DNA of 64,000 bases from an uncultured Gammaproteobacteria bacterium. Its GTDB lineage: Bacteria > Patescibacteriota > Microgenomatia > Levybacterales > GWA1-39-11. The position numbers and the translations under genes are program-made. Numbering within the stretch: the first letter of the stretch is position 1; the number at the start of each line of letters is the position of its first letter. Under the pieces are notes generated by a model that was given only the letters and a program-made list of their open reading frames with translations, ran no database searches and was not told the DNA's origin. This document shows positions 1-54,612 of this stretch, one piece after another. The DNA lies in the NCBI GenBank assembly GCA_964425075.1, contig CAYRKM010000001.1:705793-769792 (forward strand). The letters are read 5' to 3'.

Positions 1-279
1 ATTAAGAAAGCTGGATATGTTGTGATGTATGAGCCAACAGCAATTTTATGGCACAAGAATGCAGTTTCCTCAGGCGGTTCGGGTTCAAAGCTCCAGGACT
101 ATTATATTTCAAGAAATCGAATGTTGTTGGGGATGAGGTATGCTCCGCTAAGAACAAAAGCTGCATTAATTAGAGAAAGCTTAATGATTTTAAAATCCGG
201 AAGAGAATGGCAAAAGTTGGGAATTAGAGATTTTTACCTAAGAAAGTTTGGGAAAGGCACTTTTTTCAGTAAACAGTGA
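1..279 (+). CDS. GT2 glycosyltransferase, C-terminal fragment; the 5' end lies outside the window
   Basis: Frame 1 is open from base 1. The tail IKKAGYVVMYEPTAILWHK... aligns with the C-termini of the GT2 paralogs at 8689..9621 (AQKSGYKISFNSKSVVEHL) and 62347..63261 (ARKAGYETMYLPYATIKHR). Confidence 0.6.
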   Translation: MKKAGYVVMYEPTAILWHKNAVSSGGSGSKLQDYYISRNRMLLGMRYAPLRTKAALIRESLMILKSGREWQKLGIRDFYLRKFGKGTFFSKQ

Positions 280-1931
280 AATTATTTAGAAAACATTTAG
301 GACTCCTTATAATATTGGTAGTAGGTTTTCTGCCTCTGCTTGCTTTGTTTCATGTTGGGCTTCCAATAACTCATGATGGAGTTGATCACGTTGCGCGTAT
401 AGCAAATTTTTATATCTCTCTTCAGGAAGGGGTAGTAATTCCTAGGTGGGGAGCACTTTTAAATTGGGGATATGGACATCCGGTGATGATGTTTCTATAT
501 CCATTTTCTTCTTATGCCTCCTCATTTTTTCATCTTCTCGGAGCATCTTTTACTGATTCCGTAAAGATTGTCTTTGGAATAGGATTTATTGCAAGCGGGA
601 TATCAATGTATCTTTGGGCAAGAAATGCATTTAATGAATATGCTGGAATTGCAGCTGGTGTTCTTTATATGTATGCGCCTTATAGATTTGTTGATCTTTA
701 TGTAAGAGGTGCAATTGGAGAGCATACTGCATTTATTTTTCCTCCTTTGGTTCTATATTTCTTATTTAAGTTTTTTAAAAAGAATAATACTAAAAGTAGT
801 TATTGGTATTTTCTAGGAATAGTTGCTTCGATGGCTTCCTTGCTCCTTTCTCATAACGCAATTAGTATTATGTTCTTGCCGGTTATCGTTTTTTATACTT
901 TATATCTTTATTTCAATACAAATGATAAGAAAAAATTAATATATGCAGTAGGCGGGTTATTATATGGTTTTCTTCTTTCATCGTTCTTTCTTTTGCCAGC
1001 ATTTCTAGAAGGAAAATATACATTAAGAGACATAGTTACAGGAAATGAATATGCTACTCGTTTTGTGGATCCTGCCAGATTTATTTGGGGAAAATGGAAC
1101 TATGGCATAACGGGTGAATTTACAGTTCAACTAGGATTATTGCAATGGCTAGGAATTTTTGCATTCCCAGTTGTTTTATGGAACGAAATCAAACATAAGA
1201 GTAAACACCTGATTTTACTTAATGGTATATTTGTGTTTTTTTTAATTTCGCTATTTATTCAGACGCAATATTCTCAATTTCTTTACGAGATAATAACAAC
1301 TCTTAAGAAATTTCAGTTCCCATGGAGGTTTTTAAGTTTGACTGTATTTACAACAGCAATTATTACTGCCTCATTATTTTTATTAATAAAAAAGGAAAAA
1401 TATAAAAAAATAATTCTTGGAATTCTTGTCGTAACTTCAGTTTTAATAAATTGGGAATACATGCAGGCTAAAAATTATATCCTACATCCTGACAGTTTTT
1501 ATACGAGTATTTATAAAAGCACTACAGACACAGGTGAGAGTAGTCCGATTTGGTCGGTTAGATTTATGGAAAAAGTTCCCAAGGATAAAGTAGAGGTTGT
1601 GGATGGGGAGGCAACAATAACTGAAACAAGACGTTCTACAACAAGGCATTCGTACAGAATCATTTCAAAGGGTGATGCTCGTATTAAAGACAATACCGTA
1701 TATTTCCCCGGGTGGAAAGTATACGTAGATGGAAATCCGATTTTAATCGAATTTCAGGATCCTTCACAAAGAGGCCTTATCACATTTATGATCCCCACAG
1801 GAGAGCACGAGGTTGAAGTTGTCTTTGAGGATACAAAACTTAGAGTATTTGCAAACATAATTTCTATCCTGTCAGCAATTGGTTTAATTGTGTTGGGAAT
1901 ATATTTTCTAAAAAAATATGAAGAAAAATAA
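276..1931 (+). CDS. Polytopic membrane protein, GT-C-like (YfhO/PTPS-related-like superfamily); paralog of 24720..26396
   Basis: 551 aa. An N-terminal TM helix is followed by an HDGVDH acidic/His motif and then many TM segments. The C-terminus (FPGWKVYVDGNPI... plus a terminal TM anchor) resembles YfhO C-termini. ATGA overlap with the downstream gene. Confidence 0.55.
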   Translation: MKLFRKHLGLLIILVVGFLPLLALFHVGLPITHDGVDHVARIANFYISLQEGVVIPRWGALLNWGYGHPVMMFLYPFSSYASSFFHLLGASFTDSVKIVFGIGFIASGISMYLWARNAFNEYAGIAAGVLYMYAPYRFVDLYVRGAIGEHTAFIFPPLVLYFLFKFFKKNNTKSSYWYFLGIVASMASLLLSHNAISIMFLPVIVFYTLYLYFNTNDKKKLIYAVGGLLYGFLLSSFFLLPAFLEGKYTLRDIVTGNEYATRFVDPARFIWGKWNYGITGEFTVQLGLLQWLGIFAFPVVLWNEIKHKSKHLILLNGIFVFFLISLFIQTQYSQFLYEIITTLKKFQFPWRFLSLTVFTTAIITASLFLLIKKEKYKKIILGILVVTSVLINWEYMQAKNYILHPDSFYTSIYKSTTDTGESSPIWSVRFMEKVPKDKVEVVDGEATITETRRSTTRHSYRIISKGDARIKDNTVYFPGWKVYVDGNPILIEFQDPSQRGLITFMIPTGEHEVEVVFEDTKLRVFANIISILSAIGLIVLGIYFLKKYEEK

Positions 1932-4266
1932 ATTTTTTATTAAATTGTTGCCGCTTCTATTTTTAATAATGGTTTGGTTTGGATTTAGTTACCCATTTTT
2001 TATTCAGAGTAAAGTTCCATTTGCATCAAATTACCAGGTAAATTTTTTCTCTCCATGGAGTGGTTACCCTGAATTAGCGGGTCCCGTAAAGAACGATGCA
2101 CAGCCAGACGTTATTACGCAAATTTACCCATGGAGGTTGTTTGCAGTTGAAGAGCTTAAGCAAGGAAGAATTCCATTATGGAATCCATATAGTTTTTCAG
2201 GGACACCACACCTTGCAAACTATCAATCCGCAGCGCTATCTCCACTAAATATCCTTTTCTTTGTGTTCTCAGATATTGATGCCTGGAGCATACTTGTGTT
2301 ACTTCAGCCGTTGCTTGCGGGGATTGGTATTTATCTATTCGCAAGATCTTTAAAAATTTCAGAAATTGGTAGTCTTTTGTCATCCATATCCTTTATGTTT
2401 TGCGGGTTTATTACAACCTGGATGGGATATGCAACTCTTGGTTATGCTATTCTTTTTCTTCCATATTCCTTATATGCAATTCAAAAATATCTATCACAAA
2501 AATCCATTTTTTATCTTATTCTTCTCTCATTAAGCATTGCATTTTCATTTCTTAGTGGACATTTTCAAATCAGCATGTATCTTCTTTTGTGCATTATTGC
2601 ATTTAGTATATATAAATTATTTCCAGTCTATAATAACAAGAATTCTATTTTTGTTAGCCTCTTTATTTTTGTTGGAATTTTACTAGCAATGCCTCAAATT
2701 TTGCCGACCATCGAATTCTATACTTTGTCAGTTCGTAGCGCCTCATTCCAACAAACTGAAATAATTCCTTGGAGTTATCTTCCGACGTTTTTTGCGCCAG
2801 ATTTCTATGGGAATCCTGTAACGCGAAATGGTTGGTTTGGACATTATGCTGAGTGGAATGGATATATTGGAGTTGCTGGGTTAGCTTTTGCGCTTCTTGC
2901 TTTATTCAACTATAAAAAAAGAGACGTACTTTTTTTCGCTGGTGTTTCACTTTTAGCGCTACTTCTATCTTTCAACACCCCTCTGATACCATTATTAATG
3001 GCTTTAAAAATTCCTGTTCTCTCGACTAGTGCAGCAGGTAGAATTATTGTTATTTTGAGTTTTTCTTTGTCAGTACTTGCCGGGTTTGGCTTCGATACTC
3101 TACAGGACTTTAGAGAGAAAAAAAGAAAAAAAATAATCTGGTGGATATCCACACTTACACTCATGTTTATTTGCATAGTTGCATATGCAATGTTTGGTCT
3201 ACCAGATTCTCAAAAGACACCTATTGCGTTAAGTAATCTTAAGTTGCCAATTGGAATTATTGTTATTGTTTTTGCCTACATAGTAGGTATTCTATTAATA
3301 AAATCAAAGAAAATATTAGTATTTTTATCAATTGTGCTTTTAGTAATTGCCTCCTTTGATATGTTACGGTTTGCAAAAAAATGGCAGGCATTTGATCCGA
3401 AAGAACTAGTGTTTAAGGACGTTGCTACAACTGCATTTTATAAAAGTCAAAACACAGAGAAAAGATTCTTAACCGATTCAACAGCGGAAAACAGTGTTTA
3501 TTACAAACTACAAACGTTAGGTGGATATGATCCATTGTATCCTGAGGCTTATGGTGAATTTATTAAGTATGTTAATAGCGAAGAATTAATAAAGCCAGAC
3601 AGGTCCGTTGTGTCTTTTCCTAAAGATGGCATGCATACACCAGAGGCTATAAATTTTTTGGGGGTTTCATATATCATCGAAAAGATTTCTGATGAGGGGC
3701 GCCCTTGGGGTTTTCCATTTAAAAAATATCCATTGGATCAATTCAGTAAAATTTATGATGATAAAGTTTTTAGAGTTTATGAAAATAAAAAAGCATTTCC
3801 GCGTACTTTTCTTGCTTACGACACAATTACATCTGGAGATAAAAAAGAACAACTAATAAATATGTTCTCACAAGATCTTTCCAAAATTGCAGTAACAGGA
3901 GGCTCAATTCAAGGACTTAACAAAAACGGTAGGGGGAATGCAAAAATTGTAGAGTATTTACCTAATAAGATTACAATCGAAACAAATTCCTCAGGAAGCG
4001 GGTTGTTGGTTCTAACGGATAATTACTACCCAGGATGGAAAGCTAATGTAAACAATGTTAGGCAAAAAATATATAAAATAGACTATAATTTTAGAGGAGT
4101 TGTGGTACCAGAGGGTAAAAGCAGAGTGGTAATGGAGTATTTACCTCAATCTTTTTTTGTAGGTATATATCTTAGCTTAATTGGGGTGCTTATAATTGCA
4201 ACAAGTTTTGTTTTGCAAAGAATAAGAAGATTTGAATTTTTAATCAAAAAAACAAACATAAAATGA
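1918..4266 (+). CDS. YfhO-family membrane glycosyltransferase (GT-C)
   Basis: 782 aa. Has the LWNPYSFSGTPHLANYQSA motif near the N-terminus and a C-terminal YYPGWKANVNN...YNFRGVVVPEGK module followed by a terminal TM helix, both typical of YfhO. Confidence 0.7.
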   Translation: MKKNKFFIKLLPLLFLIMVWFGFSYPFFIQSKVPFASNYQVNFFSPWSGYPELAGPVKNDAQPDVITQIYPWRLFAVEELKQGRIPLWNPYSFSGTPHLANYQSAALSPLNILFFVFSDIDAWSILVLLQPLLAGIGIYLFARSLKISEIGSLLSSISFMFCGFITTWMGYATLGYAILFLPYSLYAIQKYLSQKSIFYLILLSLSIAFSFLSGHFQISMYLLLCIIAFSIYKLFPVYNNKNSIFVSLFIFVGILLAMPQILPTIEFYTLSVRSASFQQTEIIPWSYLPTFFAPDFYGNPVTRNGWFGHYAEWNGYIGVAGLAFALLALFNYKKRDVLFFAGVSLLALLLSFNTPLIPLLMALKIPVLSTSAAGRIIVILSFSLSVLAGFGFDTLQDFREKKRKKIIWWISTLTLMFICIVAYAMFGLPDSQKTPIALSNLKLPIGIIVIVFAYIVGILLIKSKKILVFLSIVLLVIASFDMLRFAKKWQAFDPKELVFKDVATTAFYKSQNTEKRFLTDSTAENSVYYKLQTLGGYDPLYPEAYGEFIKYVNSEELIKPDRSVVSFPKDGMHTPEAINFLGVSYIIEKISDEGRPWGFPFKKYPLDQFSKIYDDKVFRVYENKKAFPRTFLAYDTITSGDKKEQLINMFSQDLSKIAVTGGSIQGLNKNGRGNAKIVEYLPNKITIETNSSGSGLLVLTDNYYPGWKANVNNVRQKIYKIDYNFRGVVVPEGKSRVVMEYLPQSFFVGIYLSLIGVLIIATSFVLQRIRRFEFLIKKTNIK

Positions 4267-5018
4267 AGGACATAACCATAATAATCCTCGCCTTAAATGA
4301 GGCAGATGTAATCAAAGATGCAATTCTCTCAGTTAAGGATATTGCAAAGGAAATTTTAGTGATAAATGCTAATTCCACAGACAACACCAAAGAAATTGCT
4401 GAAAAAAATGGCGCTTTAGTAATTTCTCGTCAATTTAAAGATTTTTCAGATCAAAGAAATTTTGCCATTCTACATGCGAAAACACCATGGATAATGTATT
4501 TGGATGCAGATGAAAGATTGACAGATTCTTTTAAGAAAGAACTTAAAGAAAAAATTGAGTCATATGATGAAAAAGGGTCCGTTGGAGGATTTTATGTTAA
4601 CAGAAAAACATTTTATTTCGGTAAAGACTGGAATTTAACGGATAGGGTGCAAAGAGTTTTTTATAAAGAAAAATTCATTGAATGGTATGGAGTAGTGCAT
4701 GAAACACCAAAAATTCACGGTGAATTCAGTGAAATTAATAGTCCAATTCTGCATTTTACTCATAGGAATTTGTCTCAAATGGTAGGAAAAACAAATGAGT
4801 GGTCTGAGTATGAAGCAAGATTACGCCTTAAGTCAAACCACCCCTCTATGACAGCCTGGAGATTTATTAGGGTGATGGGAACGGAATTTATAAATTCATA
4901 CATTAAAAATGGCGGATATAAGAACGGCACTTATGGACTAATTGAAGCAATTTATCAGGCTTTCTCGATGTTTATAACTTATGCAAAGTTGTGGGAGTTG
5001 CAGCAAAAAAAACACTAA
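4263..5018 (+). CDS. GT2 family glycosyltransferase (GT-A fold)
   Basis: 251 aa. N-terminal IIILALNEADVI... and a DADE motif (YLDADERL). Paralog of 19526..20302. Start overlaps the YfhO stop (ATGA). Confidence 0.7.
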   Translation: MKDITIIILALNEADVIKDAILSVKDIAKEILVINANSTDNTKEIAEKNGALVISRQFKDFSDQRNFAILHAKTPWIMYLDADERLTDSFKKELKEKIESYDEKGSVGGFYVNRKTFYFGKDWNLTDRVQRVFYKEKFIEWYGVVHETPKIHGEFSEINSPILHFTHRNLSQMVGKTNEWSEYEARLRLKSNHPSMTAWRFIRVMGTEFINSYIKNGGYKNGTYGLIEAIYQAFSMFITYAKLWELQQKKH

Positions 5019-5358: not shown

Positions 5359-6423
5359 ATGAAAATAGGAATTTATTCTCCATATCTTGACACGATGACT
5401 GGGGGAGAAAAGTATATATTTTCAATTGCCTCATGTCTCTCAAAAAATCATTCAGTAGATATTTTTTGGAATGATAAAGAAATAATTGAAAAGGCAACAC
5501 GAAAATTTAATTTAAATCTTGAGGGGGTAAGGATTGTTCCTAACGTTTTTTCTGAGCAAGTAAACACTTTAAAAAGATTAAAAGGAACATTTGCTTATGA
5601 CAGAATAATTGTTCTTTCAGATGGCAGCATACCGTTAGTTGCAAGCAAACAACTTATACTTCATTTTCAATTTCCAGTAGAGTGGGTGAATGCTAAGTCA
5701 CCATTTATTAAATTTAAAATGAGTAGGGTTAGTAAGGTAATTTGCAATTCTTATTACACAAAAAAATATATTGATAAGAAATTTAATATACAAAGCAATA
5801 TTCTTTTTCCTCCTTCAGACGTTAATACTGGAGATATACCTGAAAAAAAGAATCTGATTCTAACAGTTGGAAGATTCAATCCATTATCAGATGGAACAGA
5901 CTTTAAAAAGTTAACAGTAATGGTTGATGCTTTTAAAGACTTTCAGAAAAAAAGATTAAAAGGTTGGAGATTTGCAATAGTAACCAACGTATTGCCGGAG
6001 AATGATAAGGAGTTCGAAGAATTTAAAAGTAAAATTGGAAGTCAATACATCGAGATACATAAAAATGTCCCATTTGATGACATAGCAAAATTGTATAAAG
6101 AAGCAAAGATTTATTGGCACGCTGCAGGATTTGGAGTTGATATAGAAAAGAGGCCAGAATGGTTGGAGCATTTTGGTATGGCAACAGTTGAGGCGATGTC
6201 ATATGGAGCAGTGCCGGTTGTTATCAATGCGGGTGGTCAGAGGGAGATTGTGAGTAATGGGAAAAATGGTTTTTTATGGAATACAACTGAAGAGTTGGTT
6301 AACTATACACACAAAATTGCAACCGAACCAAAATTATATGAGGAATTATCTGTGAGCGCTAATGAATCTTCAAAACAATTTAGTAAAGGAAGGTTTTGCG
6401 AGGAGCTTAATCAGGTAATATGA
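5359..6423 (+). CDS. GT4 family glycosyltransferase (GT-B fold)
   Basis: 354 aa. C-terminal-domain motif EHFGMATVEAMSYGAVPVVINAGGQREIV matches the GT4 E-x7-E region. Confidence 0.7.
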   Translation: MKIGIYSPYLDTMTGGEKYIFSIASCLSKNHSVDIFWNDKEIIEKATRKFNLNLEGVRIVPNVFSEQVNTLKRLKGTFAYDRIIVLSDGSIPLVASKQLILHFQFPVEWVNAKSPFIKFKMSRVSKVICNSYYTKKYIDKKFNIQSNILFPPSDVNTGDIPEKKNLILTVGRFNPLSDGTDFKKLTVMVDAFKDFQKKRLKGWRFAIVTNVLPENDKEFEEFKSKIGSQYIEIHKNVPFDDIAKLYKEAKIYWHAAGFGVDIEKRPEWLEHFGMATVEAMSYGAVPVVINAGGQREIVSNGKNGFLWNTTEELVNYTHKIATEPKLYEELSVSANESSKQFSKGRFCEELNQVI

Positions 6424-8687
6424 TACAAAAAATATTTAAGTTCTACCTTCATATTAAAACATTTCTTTTTCCGCTTTTTTTGTTAATCCTTGTAGTTATT
6501 TTTTATTATCCAACATTTCTCCAAAACAAATTGCCAATTCCATCGGATACTATAGTTGGTTTGTATCACCCATACAGAGACTTATATGACAGAGAATATC
6601 CTCGAGGAATTCCATATAAAAACTTTTTAATCACAGATCCAGTTCGTCAAACTTTTGTATGGAAAGAATTAGCAACTAGTTCATTCAAAAAAATGGAATT
6701 ACCACTTTGGAATCCATACGAAATGGCAGGAAAACCTTTGTTAGCTAATTTCCAGTCAGGAGTGTTTTATCCCTTAAATATTTTGTTTGTTGTTCTGCCT
6801 TTTACAACTGCATGGACAGTTTTTATTGTTTTACAAAGTGTTTTTATGGGTTTATTCATGTATTTGTATTTAAGAAATTTAAGGCTATCTTTTATATCAT
6901 CTTTTCTGGGATCAATAGCTCTCATATTTTCATCATTTTCAGTTGTATGGCTTGAATGGGGGAATATTATACATGCTTTTTTGTGGCTTCCATTAATACT
7001 ACTTGCAGTCGACAAATTATTTCAGAAAAAGGATAGGTATTTATTTTTTTGGGGCATATTATACGTTCTAGCTTTATTGTCTGCTTTTTTTGCAGGATAT
7101 CTTCAGACCTTTTTCTACATGTTTGTTATTTCAATATTTTATTTTGTTCTTCGCTTAGGAACAAAAAATGCTAGGCGCCTTTTACACTTCATATTACTTA
7201 ATACAATTTTTGTTCTATTGTCTTTCATACAATGGTATCCAACATATAAATTTATTCTTTTATCTGCTCGAAGTATTGACCAGAATTATTTAGTCACTGA
7301 AGGATGGTTTATTCCCTTTAAGCATCTAATACAATTTGTAGCACCAGATTTTTTTGGAAATCCTACAACCCTTAATTATTGGGGAATGTGGAATTATGCT
7401 GAGCTTGGGGGATATATAGGCATAGTTTCTCTGATGCTCGTTCCCTTCGCTTTTTTTATAAGAAGAAAACTTGTGATGTTCTTTACTGCAATTGTTTTCA
7501 GCGGATTATTATTTGCAACTGACAATTTAATTGCAAGGATTCCCTTTCAATTAGATATTCCACTTATTTCCTCCTCCCAACCTACTCGTCTGCTATCAAT
7601 TATTTTATTCTCACTTGCTGTTCTTGCGTCATTTGGCATGGAATATGTACTTAATATAAAAAGAAAATTTTCAACCTTATTCCCGTTAGCAATATGGTTA
7701 GGTGTTGTCTTGCTATTATGGTCTGCGGTTTTTCTAAAAAGCCCATTATTATTTGACGATCAGAACGTAATAGCTATAGCAAAAAGAAATTTATTTCTTC
7801 CAACAGCGCTTATTTTAAGTAGTTCCCTTTTATTTTTTGCCTTAGCCTTTTTTAAGAATAAAACCTTTAGAGCGGGAATTATAATTTTAATTTTTGTTTT
7901 TCTTTCTTTCGATCTTCTTCGCTATTCATGGAAATTTACACCCTTCACTAAGTCTGAATATCTTTTTCCACAAACTAAAATAATAAGTTTTTTACAAAAT
8001 GATAAAAGCATTTTTAGAGTCGCAGCTACTGACCAGCGTATTATGCCTCCTAATTTTCTTACACATTATAGAATTCAAACTTTAGAAGGATATGACCCAT
8101 TATATTTAAGATCTTATGCTGAATTCATAGCTTCAATGGAAAGAGGAAAGCCAGATATTAATCCTCCCTTTGGATTTAATAGAATAATTACACCACATAA
8201 TGTTAATTCTTCCTTGATGGACTCTCTAAACGTTAAATATATTCTTTCTTTTGATGAGCTAACGGATAGTAAATTTAAAAAAATAATGGTAGAGGGTAGG
8301 ACTAAACTTTATGAAAATACCCAATCATTCCCACGTGCATATTTTGTAAAAAGTATAGATACTGGTAGTAATAATCAAATTGAAATTGAGAAAATACATA
8401 AAGTAGATCTTGAAAATGTGGCTATATTATCGCAATTCAGTGCACCAGGAGAAAAAGACTACACCAAAGGAGAGGCGAGAATAAAGTTATATTCAGAGAA
8501 TAAAGTTGTTATAGAAACTCAAAATATTGGTACGGGATTTCTTGTGCTTGCAGATTCTTTCTATCCTTCCTGGAAAGCAACAATTGATGGGAGTAAAACA
8601 ACAATTTATCCTACAAACTATATATTCAGAGGAGTTGTTGTGCCGGCTGGCAAGCATACTGTAGAATTTAGTATTACGCTTTTCTAA
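6420..8687 (+). CDS. YfhO-family membrane glycosyltransferase (GT-C); paralog of 1918..4266
   Basis: 755 aa. LPLWNPYEMAGKPLLANFQSGVFYPLNILF motif and C-terminal LVLADSFYPSWKATIDG...YIFRGVVVPAGKH module. Confidence 0.7.
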   Translation: MIQKIFKFYLHIKTFLFPLFLLILVVIFYYPTFLQNKLPIPSDTIVGLYHPYRDLYDREYPRGIPYKNFLITDPVRQTFVWKELATSSFKKMELPLWNPYEMAGKPLLANFQSGVFYPLNILFVVLPFTTAWTVFIVLQSVFMGLFMYLYLRNLRLSFISSFLGSIALIFSSFSVVWLEWGNIIHAFLWLPLILLAVDKLFQKKDRYLFFWGILYVLALLSAFFAGYLQTFFYMFVISIFYFVLRLGTKNARRLLHFILLNTIFVLLSFIQWYPTYKFILLSARSIDQNYLVTEGWFIPFKHLIQFVAPDFFGNPTTLNYWGMWNYAELGGYIGIVSLMLVPFAFFIRRKLVMFFTAIVFSGLLFATDNLIARIPFQLDIPLISSSQPTRLLSIILFSLAVLASFGMEYVLNIKRKFSTLFPLAIWLGVVLLLWSAVFLKSPLLFDDQNVIAIAKRNLFLPTALILSSSLLFFALAFFKNKTFRAGIIILIFVFLSFDLLRYSWKFTPFTKSEYLFPQTKIISFLQNDKSIFRVAATDQRIMPPNFLTHYRIQTLEGYDPLYLRSYAEFIASMERGKPDINPPFGFNRIITPHNVNSSLMDSLNVKYILSFDELTDSKFKKIMVEGRTKLYENTQSFPRAYFVKSIDTGSNNQIEIEKIHKVDLENVAILSQFSAPGEKDYTKGEARIKLYSENKVVIETQNIGTGFLVLADSFYPSWKATIDGSKTTIYPTNYIFRGVVVPAGKHTVEFSITLF

Positions 8688-37749: not shown

Positions 37750-37813
37750 AAAGCTTTGTGGTATTCTTTAGCTGTTGAAATTAATTCAAAATGTGTTAAA
37801 TTAGATTTACAAA

Positions 37814-46159: not shown

Positions 46160-46162
46160 AAA

Positions 46163-47137
46163 TTATTCTAGTGTCTTTTTAATTGCTTCCTTAAATTTTT
46201 CTGATATTTTTTCTTGTGAATTAATACTTGGATGTATTGCATCTGAAAAATCATTTTCTTCTAGCCAGTTGGTAGTATCGATTAGATAAACATTTGATTC
46301 TTTTGCGACCCTACTAATAACATTGTTATAAATATTTAAATTTTCATTGCTTATGTCCTTTCTTGTAAATAATAATGGTATAAATATTTTCCCCTTAGGG
46401 TTCCATTTCTTAATATCGTTGATAATTTCTAGATAATCTTTCTCAAACGCTTCAACTGAAACATTATTTGCTGCGTCATTTGAGCCAAGAAAAATAACAA
46501 CGATATCGGACTTATATTCCATAAGGTCTTTTTCATATCTTTTTACAGCGTTATCAATTCCTTTGACTTCGGTCAAAGAGGAGCCCAAAATACTTGCATT
46601 ATGAAGCTCGTAATCAAGTTTGTTTGCCAATAAATGTGAGTAATTATTCTTTCCATATATTGTGGAGATGGAATCACCCAATAGGGAGATGGTTTTTTCG
46701 TGTAATTTGAATGGTTGGATTTTTGATGCTTTATTAACATTAATACTATTTAGAGTAATGTCGCATGGTTCATAAAAGTATGTGCAGAAATGGCGAATGG
46801 TTATATGATGCTGCTTGTTTTTATCTACAAGAATTGTGAGTTTTTGCTTGCTAATATTAGGAGAACTAATAATATATTTTTCATCATCAACTAAAATCTC
46901 CACTCCTTGATCAGCTTTAGAGTTTGTCGAAAATTGAAAACTAATATTTTCGGTATTGTTTATTCTAAAGCCAAGTTCCCCTCCTGCATAAAGACTTTTA
47001 TTATTCTTCCATCCCATACCTCGAACTAATTTCGAGCTTTGTGAGATATCCTTTTCCCTGTAGGAATTCATGAAAAAGTTTGTAAGAAAAAAGCCAAGTG
47101 CCGCCAAACAAATAATTAAAAGTAGGGTGTGTTTCAT
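46163..47137 (-). CDS. SGNH/GDSL-family hydrolase with N-terminal TM anchor
   Basis: 324 aa. ISLLGDSIS (block I, with Ser) and IVVIFLGSNDA (block III) motifs; N-terminal hydrophobic helix. Confidence 0.6.
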   Translation of the reverse strand: MKHTLLLIICLAALGFFLTNFFMNSYREKDISQSSKLVRGMGWKNNKSLYAGGELGFRINNTENISFQFSTNSKADQGVEILVDDEKYIISSPNISKQKLTILVDKNKQHHITIRHFCTYFYEPCDITLNSINVNKASKIQPFKLHEKTISLLGDSISTIYGKNNYSHLLANKLDYELHNASILGSSLTEVKGIDNAVKRYEKDLMEYKSDIVVIFLGSNDAANNVSVEAFEKDYLEIINDIKKWNPKGKIFIPLLFTRKDISNENLNIYNNVISRVAKESNVYLIDTTNWLEENDFSDAIHPSINSQEKISEKFKEAIKKTLE

Positions 47138-47218: not shown

Positions 47219-48901
47219 ATGCCTTTTAAAACCCTACTTACTTTTCTCAAAATTTTCTCCATTTTCTTCATAGTTATTTTTATATCGACATTTGGTGTAA
47301 TGAATGGTTATTTCGAGCAGGATGAATGGATGGGGATTGCCAATACAATGAAGTTTTTAAATGATCCTTGGTGGAGAGTTTTTATTCCAACCAATCTTCA
47401 CTTTTCTCCCATCGGAATCTCATTTTGGAATAGCATGTATTATATTTTTAAACTTCATGCTGAGTATTACCACCTGGTCCAACTTATTGTTCATGCTTCT
47501 GTCTCCACTTTAGTTTGTATTCTAGCTTTTCGCTTGACTAAAAATAAGACAATTGCAGTTTTAACTGGAATGATGTTTCTACTAAATGGAAGAGCACATC
47601 AGGGATTTACACATCTAGCAATTTTTCATTCAACTGATACTGCAATGTTTTTTATACTTCTCTTTTTCATTTATTTTACAAGTATTAAAGAAAAGGTTGT
47701 AAATATAAAAAAGGCTTGCATTTTGCTTTTGATTTTTCTTGGAGCGGTTTTTACTCGTGAAGAGGGTTTTATTATTCTCCCACTTTTGGCAGTATACGTT
47801 GTACTCTTGGATAAAAATAAAATAAGCAAAAAAAACATAAGACCTGCAGCGCTTTTTGTCATGGGTGTTGCGCTTTTTGTAATATTTAGGTTCTTTACTC
47901 AATCTCTTTATACAGAACCTATACCAGTTCAATATCAAATCACTGGAGTAGGTGCAGAATATAATCTAGCAACAATTCCGATTAAGTTTGTTGTCCAAAA
48001 TCTCATTTGGTCAGAAAGAATCGCCCAATTTTTTGTGGTAAATACGCCTGGCCTATACCCAGACATAGAAGGTTTTTTTACCAGTCATGCGCCAATTATG
48101 GATGCAGCCTTTTTCTACATATTTGGATTACTTTCCTTTTCTTTTGCTGTATGGATTTGGTTGATAAAGCCAAAGAACTTTGCTCCAATATTTACCTTTC
48201 TTCTTACTTGGATTTTTGCAAACGCCTTCATGTTAGCATTTGTTGGTAGACATATATCGGTTGTTGAACCAAGGTATTTATATTATTCTGCATTTCCAGT
48301 CCTTTGCCTTATTTCTATATTTGTATATTTTTTGTATGTGTCTAATTCAAGTATAAAACTCATCAATATGGTCAAGAAAGGTATAGCAGTTTTAATAATT
48401 TTGATTTTACTTGGAACATCTGTGCAGGAGATTAGATTCGCCGTCAATCGTACAGAAAGAGATGGTTTAGTGAAAAGAAAAGTATTTGAGAATTTATTAA
48501 AGGTTCATCCAAAGCTTGCTAAAAACACAATATTTTTTGTTAAGTGCAAAACTGAATGCTACAGAAATTCAGAGCTTGGTATAAGTCCTAAGAATGTATT
48601 ACCTTTTTCCTCAGGACCCGGAATGAATATTCTAATTACCTATGCTTCTCTTCAAAAAGAAGAGAAAGAATGGGGGCCATTCTTTAGTGAGTTTTTTATA
48701 TTTTATACCTTTTCAGAAGACTATAAGAAAATAGGAGATAGAAGTTTTGGTTATTTTGTAACAAAGGATAAATTAGAAGAAGCATTGATAAAGAATAAAT
48801 TACCGAAGGAAACTGTAATAGCATTAGAGCTTAATGAAAGAGATTATACATTTCGCAACATAACGCCTGAATTTATTAAAAGCCTAAATATAAATAGATG
48901 A
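47219..48901 (+). CDS. Polytopic membrane protein, GT-C-like (unassigned)
   Basis: 560 aa. EQDEWMGIANTMKF acidic motif after TM1, then multiple TM segments and a C-terminal soluble domain. Confidence 0.45.
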   Translation: MPFKTLLTFLKIFSIFFIVIFISTFGVMNGYFEQDEWMGIANTMKFLNDPWWRVFIPTNLHFSPIGISFWNSMYYIFKLHAEYYHLVQLIVHASVSTLVCILAFRLTKNKTIAVLTGMMFLLNGRAHQGFTHLAIFHSTDTAMFFILLFFIYFTSIKEKVVNIKKACILLLIFLGAVFTREEGFIILPLLAVYVVLLDKNKISKKNIRPAALFVMGVALFVIFRFFTQSLYTEPIPVQYQITGVGAEYNLATIPIKFVVQNLIWSERIAQFFVVNTPGLYPDIEGFFTSHAPIMDAAFFYIFGLLSFSFAVWIWLIKPKNFAPIFTFLLTWIFANAFMLAFVGRHISVVEPRYLYYSAFPVLCLISIFVYFLYVSNSSIKLINMVKKGIAVLIILILLGTSVQEIRFAVNRTERDGLVKRKVFENLLKVHPKLAKNTIFFVKCKTECYRNSELGISPKNVLPFSSGPGMNILITYASLQKEEKEWGPFFSEFFIFYTFSEDYKKIGDRSFGYFVTKDKLEEALIKNKLPKETVIALELNERDYTFRNITPEFIKSLNINR

Positions 48902-49653
48902 ATACAAAGGCTATAATTAAACAATTTACTTCAATTTATAGAAATCAGGGGCCATTGTCTCTTTTTGTTTACCTTTTTAAGGCATTCAATGATGGATATA
49001 TAAACAAATATTTTCGAGGATCCTTTAGTCAAAAAGGAGAAGATTTGGTTATTGAAAAATTTATTGGTACAAAAAAGAGGGGTTTTTATATTGATGTTGG
49101 AGCGCATAATCCAAACGTTTTTAATAATACAAAAAAATTTTATTCGAAAGGCTGGAGGGGGATAAACATTGAACCAAATCCAGTTTTGTTCGAAGCTTTT
49201 ACTAGAGAACGCAAGCGAGATATCAATTTAAACATAGGGATTGGTAGAACAGAGGGTACAGCTTTATTTTACGAATTGGAACCAGACAGTCTTTCAACGT
49301 TTTCGGAAAAAGAAATGAAGGATAAATTGAAATTGGGATATGAATTAAGAAAGAAATATAAAATAAAAGTTACTAGCTTAAAAGAAATAATTTCTAAATA
49401 CTGCAAAACCAGGATAGATTTTTTATCAATTGATACTGAGGGTTTGGATTACGAAGTCCTGCAAAGTAACGATTGGAAAAGATTTAGACCCACATTGGTT
49501 TGCGTAGAGACAGCCGACTTTAATTCAAAAATAACTGGAACGAAAAAATCTAATAAAGAAAATCTTATCAATGCTTTTATGAAGAATAATGGCTATGAGG
49601 AAGTTTTCAGTAATGGCCTAAACTCACTTTATAAAGATTTGAAGAAAAATTAG
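48898..49653 (+). CDS. FkbM-family methyltransferase
   Basis: 251 aa. GFYIDVGAHNPNVFNNTKKF...GINIEPNP...IDFLSIDTEG matches the FkbM-family pattern. Confidence 0.6.
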   Translation: MNTKAIIKQFTSIYRNQGPLSLFVYLFKAFNDGYINKYFRGSFSQKGEDLVIEKFIGTKKRGFYIDVGAHNPNVFNNTKKFYSKGWRGINIEPNPVLFEAFTRERKRDINLNIGIGRTEGTALFYELEPDSLSTFSEKEMKDKLKLGYELRKKYKIKVTSLKEIISKYCKTRIDFLSIDTEGLDYEVLQSNDWKRFRPTLVCVETADFNSKITGTKKSNKENLINAFMKNNGYEEVFSNGLNSLYKDLKKN

Positions 49654-50324
49654 GTTAATTGTTGTCTTTTGGCTTCTTTAGTTTTTTTTGCGACTACATA
49701 CATGCCCATTGAGACGGGCTTAAATCTTCCATACTGTCCATAATCCACAATAGTAAATCCATATTTTTTCAAAAGGTTTGTTAGGCTTTTCTTGCTAAAA
49801 AATCTTATATGTTGGGCTGTAGGATTAAATGAAATTTCAAATCCGATAAGCGCAATTATTAAGTTTTTGATAGTCCCATGATATGGTGTACTAATAAATA
49901 TTTTGCCTCCTCTTTTCAAAACCCTATTCATTTCACTCACAAAGTTAGGAGTGTCGAATATATGCTCTATAACATCTGCAGCTAAGATAAAATCTACACT
50001 TTTATCATTCAAGGGAACTCTGTCGTCTCCTGATACAACATGAAACTTACCTTTTGGAAAATTCTTTTTTGCGCGGTTAATTGCATAAGAAGAGATATCT
50101 GTTCCAATTATCTTATATGGATTTACTTTCAAAAATTCCTCAATATACCTTCCTTCGCCGCAACCGAAATCAAGTATTGTGCTATTCTTTGGTGGAAGAA
50201 CCTCTTTTATTTTTGGCCACTTCCATTTAAAGTCATGTCCCTCCCAATGTCTATCTTCCTTCCACCAATAGTCGTAAAATTTTTTCATGAATAATATGCT
50301 ATCACATTTTGGCAAGTAATGCAT
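49650..50324 (-). CDS. Class I SAM-dependent methyltransferase
   Basis: 224 aa. ILDFGCGEGRY (motif I) and FILAADVIEHI. Confidence 0.65.
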   Translation of the reverse strand: MHYLPKCDSILFMKKFYDYWWKEDRHWEGHDFKWKWPKIKEVLPPKNSTILDFGCGEGRYIEEFLKVNPYKIIGTDISSYAINRAKKNFPKGKFHVVSGDDRVPLNDKSVDFILAADVIEHIFDTPNFVSEMNRVLKRGGKIFISTPYHGTIKNLIIALIGFEISFNPTAQHIRFFSKKSLTNLLKKYGFTIVDYGQYGRFKPVSMGMYVVAKKTKEAKRQQLT

Positions 50325-50331: not shown

Positions 50332-51396
50332 TTGAATGCTTATGTTTTTTTTGATAAGATACGAAAGATGAAAAAAAGAAAAAAAGAAGAACTGCCCTTC
50401 ATATCAATTGTTACAAATACTTACAATCCCGATCCTGTTTTATTTAAAGAGGTATTAAAGGCCTTAGCTATTCAAACTTACCCTAAAAAATTGGTTGAGC
50501 ATTTGGTAATTGATGGTGGTTCTACAAATGAAACTGTAAAACTTGCCCGCTCTTTTAAATGCCGTGTTGTTGTAAGAGCCGATCTTAAAGAACAAGAACA
50601 AATGCGTTCTAGTATGGGTTTTAAAATGGCGAAAGGAAAAATTATCGCTGTAATTCAATCAGATAATATTGTAACTTCAAAAAACTGGTTGTTAAAGATG
50701 GTGCAACCATTTATTGATAATCCAGATGTGTTTTGCGCATTCAGTCAAAAAAATAGTTATAGGAAAAATATGGATGTTCTAACTCGATATTGTGCACTGT
50801 TTGGTGTTAATGATCCAACGATTTATTATCTTAATAAGACGGAAAAATTAAGAATGGATGAGACAAAATATAATAAAGGCACGATTCTTGAGGAGAGGAA
50901 AGATTATTATATTGTGAAGTTTGACAGAAGTAATTTACCACCTCTTGGTGATAATGGCCATATGTTCTTGAAAAGCGCTATCAGAAAAGTTGCCAAGGAT
51001 ACTAAAAACTACATGCACACTGATGCTTTTGGTGCACTTCTTGATATGGGATATGACACTGTTGGAGTTGTGAAAAATTCAATTATTCATGCACAAAAAC
51101 CAAATATAATTAAGACTATAAAAAGAAGAGTAGAGCTAAAAGAAAAGTTTTACGATACTTATAGAGGAAAAAGGAAATATTTGGTTTACGATCCCGGTTC
51201 TGTGCGAGACAGAATAAATCTTGTCAAATATATAATTTTCTCTTTAACTATTGTAATTCCTTTGCTTGAAAGCATAAGAGGATATATGAGAATTCGAGAC
51301 AAAGCTTGGTTTCTGCATCCCCTAATGTGTTTGCTTATGGTTGTAGGATTTGGAGTATCGGAAATAAAGCATTCTTTTAACAAACTTCTTCGTTAA
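50332..51396 (+). CDS. GT2 family glycosyltransferase with C-terminal TM segment; paralog of 34105..35115
   Basis: ISIVTNTYNPDPVLF...VIDGGSTNET. A possible alternative start is Met 50368. Confidence 0.65.
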   Translation: MNAYVFFDKIRKMKKRKKEELPFISIVTNTYNPDPVLFKEVLKALAIQTYPKKLVEHLVIDGGSTNETVKLARSFKCRVVVRADLKEQEQMRSSMGFKMAKGKIIAVIQSDNIVTSKNWLLKMVQPFIDNPDVFCAFSQKNSYRKNMDVLTRYCALFGVNDPTIYYLNKTEKLRMDETKYNKGTILEERKDYYIVKFDRSNLPPLGDNGHMFLKSAIRKVAKDTKNYMHTDAFGALLDMGYDTVGVVKNSIIHAQKPNIIKTIKRRVELKEKFYDTYRGKRKYLVYDPGSVRDRINLVKYIIFSLTIVIPLLESIRGYMRIRDKAWFLHPLMCLLMVVGFGVSEIKHSFNKLLR

Positions 51397-51460: not shown

Positions 51461-52621
51461 ATGAAAAGCACCGCCAAATCAATAATATATGTAAATTATT
51501 CCCCCTACGAAAATTCTGGAAAAATATTAGATTATCTGTTAGAGAATTTCAAAATTGTGTGTCTTTTTTCAATCGGGTTCCACAGTTTGGAGAACAAAAA
51601 AAATTATAATATCCTCTCAATTTACAAAAAAGGTAAATTAATTGAAACTTATTCCTTGTTTCAATTACCCATTCCGCAAAATTTAGTTTTTATTCTTATT
51701 CCAATAAGGTCTGCAATTTCTTTTATAGAAATTATTATTTATTCAATATGGTTAAAGAATAAGTTTAAGAAAATTGACATTTATTTCACTGCAAATGCAT
51801 TCACTGCCTGGATAGGAAAAATTTTGAAGTCATTTCGAATTGTTAATAGGACTGTATTTTGGGTGTGGGATTATTACCCTCCAATTCATGAGAATAAATT
51901 GATAATGCTAATGCGCTATGTTTATTGGCAGTTTGATAAGATGAGTTCTCACTCTGATACGGTAGCATTTGTTAATCAAAGGTTACTTGATTTGAGAAAA
52001 GATATTGGAATTTATCCTAAGGACTCAGAATACCCTATTGTGCCAATTGGAACAGATAAAATTAAAATCAAAAATGAAAAAAAAGTGCGCAAGAAATTGA
52101 AATTTGGATTTATTGGTGTATTAAAGAAGAGTCAGGGGGTTGACATAATATTTAAGAATGCAAATGACTTAACCAAGAAATTTGGGGAAGTGAAGTACGA
52201 GATAGTTGGCTCTGGACCTGATGAAAAGTATTTTAAAGGTAGAGCTAGAAAATCTGGTATAAAAACAACCTTTTATGGATATCTTGAAGGGGATTCGTTT
52301 AACGACGTTTTAAAAGATTGCACTATTGGAATTGCAACATACACTTCTGAGGCTAGTAATGTTTCTCAGTATGGAGATCCAGGTAAAATTAAGAGATATT
52401 TGAGTTTGGGGATCCCGGTGATTACAACTGATATAATTGAATTTGCAGAAGAAATTGAAAAGTCTGGCGCAGGTGTTATTGTAAAATATAATGATAAGAA
52501 ATCTTTAATGGAGGCAGTTGAAAAAATTATGAATAAGCAGGAGGAGTATAGGAAGAATGCATATAAGCTTGGCCAAAAATTTTATTATAGAAAAATTTAT
52601 CCGCAGATGTTTGCAATTTAA
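51461..52621 (+). CDS. GT-B glycosyltransferase (GT4-like)
   Basis: 386 aa. C-terminal Rossmann domain with FGFIGVLKKSQG...GDPGKIKRYLSLGIPVITTD. Confidence 0.5.
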   Translation: MKSTAKSIIYVNYSPYENSGKILDYLLENFKIVCLFSIGFHSLENKKNYNILSIYKKGKLIETYSLFQLPIPQNLVFILIPIRSAISFIEIIIYSIWLKNKFKKIDIYFTANAFTAWIGKILKSFRIVNRTVFWVWDYYPPIHENKLIMLMRYVYWQFDKMSSHSDTVAFVNQRLLDLRKDIGIYPKDSEYPIVPIGTDKIKIKNEKKVRKKLKFGFIGVLKKSQGVDIIFKNANDLTKKFGEVKYEIVGSGPDEKYFKGRARKSGIKTTFYGYLEGDSFNDVLKDCTIGIATYTSEASNVSQYGDPGKIKRYLSLGIPVITTDIIEFAEEIEKSGAGVIVKYNDKKSLMEAVEKIMNKQEEYRKNAYKLGQKFYYRKIYPQMFAI

Positions 52622-54612
52622 TGACAAATAGACTAGACAAGATTACTGTACCTACCCTCGTTTTTTTATTAATTCTCTCGATTTTTTATAGGTGGTTTTG
52701 GGGTGGTGTTCTTGCGGGTGGAGACTGGCCATATCTATATCCTCAGGGTGTTCTTGAAGTTGTCCCTTTGTCTTCATGGGATCTTCTTTTTAATAATGGT
52801 ATGGGGCAGAGTGCTTTTCCTAAAATCTGGTTTGACGCGTATTCTCTTTTAATAGTAAAACTTGCCCAATTTTTGCCTTGGGGAGTCTTTGAAAGACTTG
52901 TGTGGTTTTTCCCGTATATTGTGGTTTCTTTTTTTGCTTCTTATTTTCTTGGGAAAAAGATGAATTTGTCCTCAAATTTTGCCTGTCTTGCCGGAGTAAT
53001 TTATTCGCTTAATACCTACATTTTTATGGTTGTTTCAGGGGGGCAGGCTGGTGTCTTTACTGCATATGCTTTTATGCCGGTAGTTTTTTATGGAGTTCTT
53101 AGTTTATTTGAAAATTTTACGTTTAGGCGATCTTTAATCCTCTCCCTTTGCTTCTCGATTCTTATGCTGCTCGATTTAAGAGTGGGATATATGTTTTTGT
53201 TTGCTTTGTTTTTATTTACTATTGTTAATCTCACTTTTTATCCTAAAGGTTTTATTAAAAAAGTAATGTTAATATTTACAGTTCCGGGAGTTGTTGCATT
53301 TCTCTTGCATATTTTTTGGATAGGTCCAATTTTAATAATGAGAAGAAATCCAGCCGTAGAACTTACGGATGTTTATACATCCTCATCAACTTTAGATTTT
53401 TTTAGTTTTGCCAGACTTGAAAATGCAATAAGCCTTCTGCATCCCAACTGGCCTGATAATATTTTTGGGAAAGTAGCATTCCTAAGACCCGAATTTTTAA
53501 TAACCCCAATAATAGTATTTGTGTCACTTCTCTTTGTTGAAAAAGAGAAAAAATCTAGAAAGTTGTATTTATTGTCATTCATGCTGTTGGCATTATTTGG
53601 AATTTTCCTGGCAAAAGGTACCAATGATCCTTTTGGGGAAATATACAGAACCGCTTTTAACGTCATTCCAGGTTTTGTAATGTTTCGCGACCCAACAAAG
53701 TGGTACATGCTAATTGCTGTCTCTTTTTCAGTTTTAATTCCTTACTCACTTTCTAAGCTGACAGAAATTTTTGTAAACTTGAAATTTAAAAAGGCGGAAT
53801 TAATAGTATGTGCTGTGTTTCTTATTTTTTGGGCATTTATTATGCAGGATGCTGTTTCTGGAAAGGTTAAGGGAACTTTTTATCCTCGGCAGATTCCTTC
53901 AGAATTTAGTAGTCTTGCTGAGAAAATTTCCAATGATAAAGAATTTTATCGAACACTTTGGGTGCCAACATATCCTACGCTTGCTTATGTTTCCAATACG
54001 CATCCGGCAATTCCTGGAATCGAATTTTTTAAGGCAACTTCACTCGACAACCTATTAAATAATCTTGAAAAAGGAAATAATATAACTCAACTACAATATG
54101 CATCTGTTAAATATGTAATTTTACCTGAAGACATTTATGGAAGGATTTTTGTAAATGATAGAAAATACGATGACAACGTATACAAAAGAGCTCTTGATAA
54201 ATTGGAAAAAAATTCAAATATAAAAGAGGTAGGTAGATACGGTAAAAATGTTGTTTTTGAAATCAAAAACCCAAAACAGCATTTTTGGTTGGAGAACAAC
54301 TCTGCTAAAGTGAACTACAAATATGTCTCTCCCACCGAATACATCTTGGATATCTCAAACGTAAAGAAGGGTGACAGGCTTATTTTTTCAGAAACTTTTG
54401 ATAAATTTTGGGAGGCAAAAAACGATAAATTTGTTGTGGGTAGTGCTCAATTTGGCAGGTTTAATAGTTTTAGTCTGCCAAAAGAAGGAACTTATCAATT
54501 TAGGGTTATTTACAAACCTCAGGCATGGCTAAATATGGGTTTATTTATAAGTGGAGCATGCTTATTAATTGTCGCGATTTTAATTATCAAGATTAAGGAT
54601 AAAAAAATATGA
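52621..54612 (+). CDS. Polytopic membrane protein, GT-C-like, with extracytoplasmic C-terminal domain and terminal TM anchor; related to 41799
   Basis: 663 aa. GGDWPYLYPQ motif after TM1. The C-terminus FSETFDKFWEAKND...EGTYQFRVIYKP plus a TM helix parallels the C-terminus of 41799. Confidence 0.5.
   Translation: MTNRLDKITVPTLVFLLILSIFYRWFWGGVLAGGDWPYLYPQGVLEVVPLSSWDLLFNNGMGQSAFPKIWFDAYSLLIVKLAQFLPWGVFERLVWFFPYIVVSFFASYFLGKKMNLSSNFACLAGVIYSLNTYIFMVVSGGQAGVFTAYAFMPVVFYGVLSLFENFTFRRSLILSLCFSILMLLDLRVGYMFLFALFLFTIVNLTFYPKGFIKKVMLIFTVPGVVAFLLHIFWIGPILIMRRNPAVELTDVYTSSSTLDFFSFARLENAISLLHPNWPDNIFGKVAFLRPEFLITPIIVFVSLLFVEKEKKSRKLYLLSFMLLALFGIFLAKGTNDPFGEIYRTAFNVIPGFVMFRDPTKWYMLIAVSFSVLIPYSLSKLTEIFVNLKFKKAELIVCAVFLIFWAFIMQDAVSGKVKGTFYPRQIPSEFSSLAEKISNDKEFYRTLWVPTYPTLAYVSNTHPAIPGIEFFKATSLDNLLNNLEKGNNITQLQYASVKYVILPEDIYGRIFVNDRKYDDNVYKRALDKLEKNSNIKEVGRYGKNVVFEIKNPKQHFWLENNSAKVNYKYVSPTEYILDISNVKKGDRLIFSETFDKFWEAKNDKFVVGSAQFGRFNSFSLPKEGTYQFRVIYKPQAWLNMGLFISGACLLIVAILIIKIKDKKI

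Follow-up and report, generated by a model that had tools for sequence, protein, structure and literature searches.

A probable cell-envelope glycan island with sixteen predicted GT-C-type membrane glycosyltransferases in Microgenomates-type Patescibacteria

The assembly of lipomannan, lipoarabinomannan (LAM) and arabinogalactan in mycobacteria and corynebacteria is, in scale, the described system closest to the locus analyzed here, an island of sixteen predicted membrane glycosyltransferases (GTs) of the GT-C superfamily in a Microgenomates-type Patescibacterium. The island was studied in a 64-kb stretch of contig CAYRKM010000001.1 (hereafter the window), and its genes are named by their start positions in it. 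The mycobacterial comparison set consisted of PimE, MptA/B/C, EmbA/B/C, AftA-D, Pmt and Ppm1, the last of which makes polyprenyl-phosphate-mannose. Mycobacterial GT-C genes are spread over a 4-Mb genome, whereas here they form one 55-kb island in a contig of ~0.8 Mb, and the mycobacterial enzymes share ~10% identity with the window proteins, a likeness at the level of the fold only. A further difference is that no Pfam family of the decaprenyl-phosphate-arabinose donor pathway (UbiA-type phosphoribosyl pyrophosphate transferase, DprE1/E2) was found among the 52 window open reading frames (ORFs) of at least 150 amino acids (aa). The bacterium, a member of the Candidate Phyla Radiation (CPR), is monoderm-like and without mycolic acids.

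A three-component logic of GT2 polyprenyl-phosphate-sugar synthase, flippase and GT-C is established in other bacteria, as in GtrA/GtrB/Gtr*, CsbB/GtcA/YfhO for teichoic acids, ArnC/ArnE-F/ArnT and the Citrobacter GT136 system (PMC11127046). The island shares this logic, with two YfhO-family proteins and two proteins resembling dolichol-phosphate-mannose synthase (DPMS), GtrB and ArnC. It differs in having 16 GT-Cs for 2 recognizable synthases and in that a GtrA-family or SMR-type flippase was not detected among the scanned ORFs. While the three-component systems add side-chain decoration, the GT-Cs of the island outnumber the cytoplasmic GTs of either class.

In lactococci and streptococci, the rhamnose-rich cell-wall polysaccharide (cwps) loci hold only a few GT-C genes each, whereas the Patescibacteria island has 16, including families without a Pfam model. 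These loci are likewise large and mix cytoplasmic GTs, flippases and several GT-Cs for extracytoplasmic steps (PMC9574508, PMC10821137). The literature that we searched did not describe GT-C enzymes, or such a locus, in CPR/Patescibacteria; the nearest remarks concern '29 genes of glycosyl transferases' in a complete Microgenomates genome (PMC7143001) and several dolichol-phosphate mannosyltransferase copies in Peribacteria (PMC4736985). Every component of the island is of a known kind. The novelty lies in how many GT-Cs a reduced genome concentrates at one place, in the conservation of these genes, and in GT-C families for which Pfam has no model.

The sixteen membrane proteins and their GT-C families

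The original prediction, made from the DNA letters and ORF translations, had listed sixteen large multi-transmembrane proteins of GT-C type covering roughly 28 kb, or about 44%, of the window. All were recovered as polytopic membrane ORFs of 370-1126 aa on the + strand at the starts named (Table 1), each with 7-13 transmembrane (TM) segments in a Kyte-Doolittle scan. Together they sum to 9,473 aa or 28.4 kb, which is 44% of the 64 kb and corresponds to 2.9 GT-C genes per 10 kb. The mechanical start of the sixth is GTG 13493, while a start at ATG 13526 yields 550 aa, in agreement with ortholog lengths; both names refer to this one gene. The GT-C genes all run in one direction and lie close together or overlap, an arrangement that looks operon-like. 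In the homolog tables 52621, 22925 and 47219 are placed on the same 835,411-bp NCBI contig, of which GT-C coding sequence makes up ~3.4% and the 64-kb island ~7.7%.

Judged by sequence and fold comparison, at least 15 of the 16 are GT-C-superfamily membrane proteins, and 22925 is probably another. Eight score above the Pfam gathering cutoff (276, 24720, 1918, 6420, 11881, 13493, 30567 and 16687), 15181 (PMT_2) and 21813 (GT87) fall below it, and a Pfam match is absent for six (10353, 17969, 22925, 41799, 47219 and 52621), all of which apart from 22925 were linked through hhalign or phmmer only. Proteins 10353 and 17969 group with 15181 and 16687 (hhalign probability 99-100%), and this group D leads on to the PMT families at 95-98%. 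The PF09586 matches of 1918 and 6420 span model positions about 73-600 of 835, and in 1918 the 10 predicted TM are followed by an extracytoplasmic domain and a further TM at the C-terminus. The longest protein, 41799, has ~650 C-terminal residues assigned to the extracytoplasmic side, and likewise a TM at its C-terminus; ~500 aa beyond the part that aligns with 52621 have no family match. It is a single ORF in the window and is split into 746 + 366 aa in the relative L083 (5587-8914).

Family alignments were built for 52621, 22925 and 47219, and two of these three proteins were folded with AlphaFold2 (AF2). PDB sequence searches with the three family profiles returned nothing meaningful and only fold comparison worked. 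Helical bundles are visible in both AF2 models, the comparison found the GT-C three-dimensional fold in these two members, and the best structural matches were active transferases. Throughout the Pfam, NCBIfam, profile-profile and structure comparisons GT-C families were favored and transporters never, and the profile of the Wzx flippase, a negative control that is also polytopic, reached an hhalign probability of at most 0.9% against all 16. The GT-C assignment made originally is thus supported, as none of the sixteen was placed in a transporter or permease family.

It had also been proposed that almost all of the proteins carry an acidic motif in the loop after TM1. Our hydropathy scan recovered every motif quoted (HDGVDH/HDGEYH, WDE twice, FDEY, WDQVD, YDIGRD, FDHGRE, YDQAW, EQDEW, GDW and SDSGY), and in 12 family alignments the loop-1 Asp does not vary. 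The invariant residues are D34/D37 in 276 (HDGVDH), D38 in 24720 (HDGEYH), D52-E53 in 13493 (12 sequences), D41-E42 in 30567 (FDEY), D42/D46 in 15181 (YDIGRD), D53 in 17969 (FDHGRE), D49/D52 in 16687 (WDQVD), D35 in 52621, D35-E36 in 47219, D22 in 21813 (13 sequences, in which D95 is invariant too) and D127 in 22925 (35 sequences); in 10353 (YDQAW) the equivalent position, D43, is always acidic. For 1918, 6420, 41799 (SDSGY) and 11881 (WDE) the motif was read from a single sequence, the 11881 alignment being spoiled by shortened ORFs. The conserved Asp of 22925 sits after the fourth predicted TM and not the first, because extra sequence precedes it at the N-terminus, which shorter homologs lack. 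A DxD or D-E motif after TM1 has been described as essential in GT-C enzymes (PMC6801728), and the invariant loop-1 residue would fit this active-site motif. Loop 1 may face outward; this would agree with the fold matches of two members and with N-terminal tails that in most members hold 1-8 Lys/Arg versus 0-2 in the 15 residues after TM1, as in an N-in topology.

The NCBIfam model matched by 21813, TIGR03459, is alpha-1,6-mannosyltransferase A, and the 21813 ortholog in L082, a 43-kb relative contig, carries PF26314 (MptA_B_family). The 22925 family aligns with the DUF2298 proteins of Blautia loci over 502 columns (hhalign 98.6%, E 1e-15), while the extra N-terminal 3-TM segment sets it apart from such DUF2298/'YYY' membrane proteins. 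A few 22925 homologs match Dpy19 or DUF2298 weakly, and 22925 itself falls short of the Pfam DUF2298 model. Its hhalign links to the 16687 family (56-90%) and the 13493 family (46-78%) vary with query direction, and the DUF2298 profile gave neither a direct link to the PMT-like families nor independent proof of a GT-C fold in 22925. We take DUF2298 to belong to the Pfam GT-C clan. In Blautia sp. (L015, 9680-13934) a 22925-family homolog of ~25% identity adjoins a bona fide DUF2298 gene (Pfam 8e-114), and the same pair is found in ~65 other Lachnospiraceae loci; this two-gene pair of related membrane proteins, in cultivable gut bacteria, could serve as an experimental handle.

Protein 47219 belongs to a family of 522 clusters at 50% identity (E<=1e-30), none of whose membrane domains reaches a Pfam cutoff. 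The corresponding NCBI protein (P0193) has 533 aa and, being 27 residues shorter, would lose most of TM1; the longer start is favored because homologs are 555-573 aa. Distant family members of ~700 aa (P0250, P0258, P0273, P0288, P0322 and P0353) have a discoidin (F5/8 type C, galactose-binding-like) C-terminal domain that the window protein lacks. Such C-terminal domains of carbohydrate-binding type, among which we count the beta-sandwich of 52621, hint at glycan acceptors for some members.

The sixteen had been called paralogs, which is correct at the superfamily level only, since they are not recent copies but about 9 distinct families. All-against-all phmmer gave five close groups (276/24720; 1918/6420; 11881/13493; 15181/17969/16687(/10353); 41799/52621) and four singletons (21813, 22925, 30567 and 47219). 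Profile comparison resolved two deep clusters, one of PTPS_related, YfhO and the AftD-like group and the other of PMT/PMT_2-like proteins, group D and 47219 (with 22925), with 21813 apart. For each gene an ortholog elsewhere is far closer than its neighbor in the locus, as for 11881 (~1e-190 to its orthologs versus 1e-96 to 13493), which indicates that the duplications are old and that the copies have been kept distinct.

Conservation and interpretation of the island

Our scan of species-representative genomes for the 22925 family yielded 13 Patescibacteria-type loci, including the complete 762-kb chromosome of a Candidatus Levyibacteriota (CP066685) and a Gottesmanbacteria metagenome-assembled genome (MAG). 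Each carries 3-8 GT-C genes within 7.5-22 kb, or 6-8 per ~21 kb where Levybacteria, Gottesmanbacteria and other Patescibacteria keep the gene order, and they share with the window the order PMT pair, group D, MptA-like, 22925-like, PTPS_related, Wzx and PMT_2, at 30-60% protein identity in syntenic Levybacteria, Gottesmanbacteria and other Patescibacteria MAGs; in L002-L010 the Wzx orthologs are placed as in the window. On a 43-kb contig at roughly 55% protein identity the gene order of the window's right half recurs as well. Content varies among relatives by an extra or missing member of groups C, D or A. The Blautia loci, taken because each holds one 22925 homolog, have at most 2 GT-C genes each. 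The locus had been thought exceptional. Its 16 genes are confirmed, but it is not unique: syntenic loci occur across Microgenomates-type Patescibacteria, and related Patescibacteria loci have 1.8-4.5 GT-C genes per 10 kb. To the question raised at the time, whether it is conserved or strain-specific, the shared gene order answers that the island is, on these comparisons, typical of its lineage. Several syntenic MAG records (L002, L003, L006-L008 and L011-L013) are titled 'uncultured Gammaproteobacteria bacterium', yet their loci match in gene order both the window and records that bear the names Patescibacteria, Levybacteria or Gottesmanbacteria, and the titles of these third-party annotation records look like mislabels.

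We consider it probable that the window is one long cell-envelope glycan island of a Microgenomates-type Patescibacterium, conserved in the lineage, whose GT-Cs act outside the membrane. Glycan-related assignments cover 50 of the window's 52 ORFs that reach 150 aa: 16 GT-C, 9 GT2 and 7 GT4 transferases (one GT4 being a stand-alone N-domain), 6 epimerase/dehydratases, 1 nucleotidyltransferase, 2 DegT aminotransferases, 1 UDP-glucose dehydrogenase, 2 hexapeptide acyltransferases, 4 methyltransferases, 1 GDSL hydrolase and 1 Wzx flippase. In the mechanism that we propose, cytoplasmic GT2/GT4 enzymes would use modified nucleotide sugars (amino, acetylated, methylated and uronic) to assemble an oligosaccharide on polyprenyl diphosphate, which Wzx would then flip across the membrane to its outer face. 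The product of this Wzx-type pathway, and probably other molecules of the envelope, would be lengthened or decorated there by the GT-Cs. In parallel, the DPMS-like enzymes 9618 and 55989 would load single sugars onto polyprenyl phosphate, the loaded lipids would be flipped, and each GT-C would transfer its sugar, with its own linkage and acceptor specificity, to envelope acceptors on the outer face. That these two soluble GT2 proteins make lipid-linked monosaccharide donors is likely from their matches to DPMS, GtrB and ArnC, which take in almost the whole of each protein. In NCBIfam, 9618 stays below the cutoffs of all the models that it matches (AglJ, Dol-P-hexose transferase, ArnC and PpgS), and 55989 matches the same set, again below the equivalog cutoffs.

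Several observations weigh against this interpretation. Only two clear polyprenyl-phosphate-sugar synthases accompany the 16 GT-Cs, a small flippase of the GtrA, SMR or MATE type was not found among the scanned ORFs, where the only flippase is the Wzx-type Polysacc_synt protein, and an initiating phosphoglycosyltransferase was not found among the window ORFs of at least 150 aa. The sequence of 21813 itself stays below curated cutoffs, the links of 22925 to proven GT-C families are no more than moderate, with asymmetric hhalign probabilities (56% versus 90%), and a whole-protein Lys/Arg parity count on crude TM calls gave no topology information. Moreover, we infer the enzyme activities, donors and acceptors of the sixteen from sequence.

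The original prediction saw in the locus the stepwise extracytoplasmic assembly of a very complex surface glycan or glycoprotein. Read as a single assembly line, this would mean that all 16 GT-Cs act in turn on the same acceptor and produce a single highly complex, branched lipoglycan or wall polysaccharide, equivalent in CPR to lipomannan, LAM and arabinogalactan of mycobacteria. The operon-like packing of the genes, the order kept in relatives and the presence of MptA/B-like and AftD-like families speak for such a line, as does the small number of donor synthases: with only two of them, one donor must serve many GT-Cs, in the way that polyprenyl-phosphate-mannose is shared in mycobacteria (PMC3485146). 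We nevertheless regard it as possible but doubtful, because nothing ties the 16 enzymes to one acceptor, membership of groups C, D and A varies among relatives, the decaprenyl-phosphate-arabinose pathway is missing from the ORFs scanned, and the mix includes PMT-like and YfhO-like enzymes. Characterized relatives of PMT act on proteins and those of YfhO on teichoic acids. The combination of PMT-like, YfhO-like, MptA/B-like and AftD/PTPS-like proteins suggests more than one class of acceptor, a glycopolymer or lipoglycan together with proteins that are secreted or belong to an S-layer or pilus. A single very complex glycan may be the product; several acceptors are equally possible.

The readings that part further from extracytoplasmic glycosylation by a conserved island fare less well. 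A substantial fraction of the sixteen might be GT-C-fold proteins without transferase activity, serving as scaffolds or in lipid delivery or flippase association like PIG-U, MmpA and Agl23; we think this unlikely, as the loop-1 Asp is invariant in every available family alignment, the matches to MmpA and Agl23 lie far below curated cutoffs and cover part of each protein only, and active transferases give the top structural matches. Hypervariability is common in glycan loci, and the relatives do differ somewhat (a group C/D/A member gained or lost, 41799 split in L083), so that one could see in the window a strain-specific, fast-diversifying surface-antigen island under phage or host pressure, recently acquired or expanded by duplication. 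Such an origin seems quite improbable when orthologs elsewhere are much closer than in-locus paralogs and gene order is conserved down to Levybacteria and Gottesmanbacteria. Composition is also uniform across the window (GC content 29-38%, GC skew steadily positive, almost every gene on the + strand), in which neither tRNA genes, Rfam families nor a mobile-element signature were found. Finally, transporters or permeases are polytopic too, six of the sixteen are without a Pfam match, and one 22925 homolog has isolated weak matches to BPD_transp_2 and Oxidored_q3. Given that the family, profile and fold comparisons all point to GT-C and given the Wzx control, we rejected this reading as extremely improbable.

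Further genes of the window

The coordinates of the sixteen GT-C genes and of the other glycan genes are collected in Table 1.

Table 1. Glycan-related features of the 64-kb window (TM, transmembrane segment; SAM, S-adenosylmethionine; 5mlz, PDB entry)
Coordinates	Strand	Length (aa)	Feature	Evidence
276..1931	+	551	GT-C, PTPS_related, paralog of 24720	PF10131 1.2e-14, 54 bits vs cutoff 26.4; phmmer to 24720 3e-72
1918..4266	+	782	GT-C, YfhO family, paralog of 6420	PF09586 3.1e-27, 95.8 bits vs 28.5; phmmer to 6420 6e-104
4263..5018	+	251	GT2	PF00535 5e-21
5359..6423	+	354	GT4/GT-B	Glycos_transf_1 9e-21
6420..8687	+	755	GT-C, YfhO family	PF09586 1.2e-17, 64.1 bits vs 28.5; 13 predicted TM
8689..9621	+	310	GT2	PF00535 5e-27
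9618..10349	+	243	GT2, candidate polyprenyl-phosphate sugar synthase	Best PDB: dolichol-phosphate-mannose synthase 5mlz 1.2e-16 (residues 7-215), ArnC, GtrB
10353..11855	+	500	GT-C, divergent PMT_2-like group D, no Pfam match	hhalign 99.5% to 15181 family, 95.7% (E 8.8e-9) to 13493 PMT_2 family; phmmer 6e-4 to 17969
11881..13524	+	547	GT-C, PMT/PMT_2 (GT39-like)	Pfam PMT 2.1e-12, PMT_2 1.1e-10, both above cutoff
13526..15178	+	550 (from ATG 13526)	GT-C, PMT/PMT_2 (GT39-like)	PMT_2 2.2e-10, PMT 8e-7; phmmer to 11881 1e-96
15181..16686	+	501	GT-C, group D	PMT_2 1e-4, below cutoff; phmmer to 17969 2e-43; hhalign 96% to 13493 family
16687..17988	+	433	GT-C, group D	PMT_2 27.2 bits vs cutoff 26.1
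17969..19513	+	514	GT-C, group D, no Pfam match	phmmer to 15181 8e-45; hhalign 96-97% to PMT families
19526..20302	+	258	GT2	PF00535 2e-22
20312..21289	+		NAD-dependent epimerase/dehydratase	Pfam Epimerase 5e-54
21813..22925	+	370	GT-C, MptA/MptB (GT87-like) family	Pfam GT87 9.8e-5, NCBIfam TIGR03459 6e-8, both below cutoff
22925..24754	+	609	Probable GT-C, DUF2298-related, N-terminal 3-TM extension	hhalign, family alignments
24720..26396	+	558	GT-C, PTPS_related	PF10131 9.7e-12, 44.6 bits
26365..27447	+	360	GT4	Glycos_transf_1 6e-28
27431..28699	+	422	Wzx-type flippase, 11 TM	Pfam Polysacc_synt 3e-17, Polysacc_synt_3
28644..29462	+	272	GT2	PF00535 7e-18; weak ArnC/PpgS-like matches
29459..30574	+	371	GT4	Glycos_transf_1 2e-33
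30567..31898	+	443	GT-C, PMT_2	Pfam PMT_2 4.7e-14, 53 bits
31916..34008	both		SAM methyltransferase (+), DegT-type sugar aminotransferase (-)	Pfam
34105..35115	+	336	GT2 with 2 TM	PF00535 8e-21; PDB: generic GT2 enzymes
35117..39657	+		Nucleotide-sugar block: epimerase, nucleotidyltransferase, three epimerase/dehydratases	Pfam
39641..40891	+	416	GT4	Glycos_transf_1 4e-18
40891..41787	+		SAM methyltransferase	Pfam
41799..45179	+	1126	GT-C, AftD/PTPS-like group E	phmmer to 52621 2.6e-19; hhalign 99.4% over 509 columns
45545..47137	both		Hexapeptide acyltransferase (+), GDSL/SGNH hydrolase (-)	Pfam
47219..48901	+	560	GT-C fold	Family without Pfam model
48898..50324	both		FkbM methyltransferase (+), SAM methyltransferase (-)	Pfam
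50332..51396	+	354	GT2 with 2 TM	PF00535 1e-12
51461..52621	+	386	GT4	Glycos_transf_1 3e-18
52621..54612	+	663	GT-C fold, AftD/PTPS-like group E	C-terminal beta-sandwich domain and TM anchor
54833..56008	+		DegT-type sugar aminotransferase	Pfam 3.5e-64
55989..56714	-	241	GT2, second candidate polyprenyl-phosphate sugar synthase	Only PDB matches: DPMS 5mlz 1.9e-15, GtrB, ArnC, nearly full length
56714..58919	-		UDP-glucose/GDP-mannose dehydrogenase and epimerase	Pfam
59990..61738	+	181 and 373	Stand-alone GT4 N-domain ORF (59990-60535), then full GT4 (60617-61738)	Glyco_transf_4 3e-7; Glycos_transf_1 6e-44
61740..62342	+		Hexapeptide acyltransferase	Pfam
62257..63261	+	334	GT2	PF00535 2e-16

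Two small membrane ORFs adjoin GT-C genes. The first (45166-45564, +; 132 aa, 3 predicted TM) overlaps the end of 41799 and is of the size of a GtrA-type flippase, with no Pfam or NCBIfam match, and the second (54609-54836, +; 75 aa, 3 predicted TM), also without a family match, overlaps the stop codon of 52621. An ORF of equal length follows the 52621 ortholog in L083 (17480-17707), and the product of 54609-54836 could be a small membrane partner of the 52621 GT-C or a flippase subunit. The split of the GT4 at 59990-61738 recurs in L083 (18863-20526; 178 + 376 aa) and, being common to both, probably does not mark a recent pseudogene.

Only 21292-21816 (+) and 59040-59933 (+) are without a glycan assignment among the ORFs of at least 150 aa; the ortholog of the former, at L082 1034-1540, carries DUF5667, and the latter has no family match whatever. 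At the right edge an ORF cut by the window end (63258-64000, +; 7 TM in 247 aa) has no meaningful Pfam match, and by eye its product seems to resemble O-antigen ligase/polymerase-type proteins. The partial ORF at 1-275 appears by eye to be glycosyltransferase-like. These two partial ORFs suggest that the island runs past both ends of the window. A promoter/terminator scan of the window found fewer sites than in shuffled sequence and added no information on operons.

Probable surface glycans in reduced genomes

The usual view of CPR/Patescibacteria is that they live attached to host cells, and to our knowledge almost nothing is known of their surface chemistry. That a reduced genome devotes so much to this island speaks for extracytoplasmic glycosylation as a core function under selection. 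We advance, only tentatively, the further hypothesis that Microgenomates-type CPR (genomes ~0.8 Mb) keep a conserved extracytoplasmic line of ~16 GT-Cs resembling those for LAM and arabinogalactan. It might include at least 2-3 families absent from Pfam (47219; 22925/DUF2298-like; 52621/41799) and build a lineage-specific surface lipoglycan or an S-layer or pilus glycan central to episymbiotic host attachment. The two candidate donor synthases, the 16 predicted transferases and the invariant Asp of each aligned family are concrete targets for work on the CPR envelope glycan, and at least one sizeable GT-C family, that of 47219, has no Pfam model, which matters for the annotation of GT-Cs in metagenomes. 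More broadly, minimal cells may invest heavily in surface sugar coats built outside the membrane.

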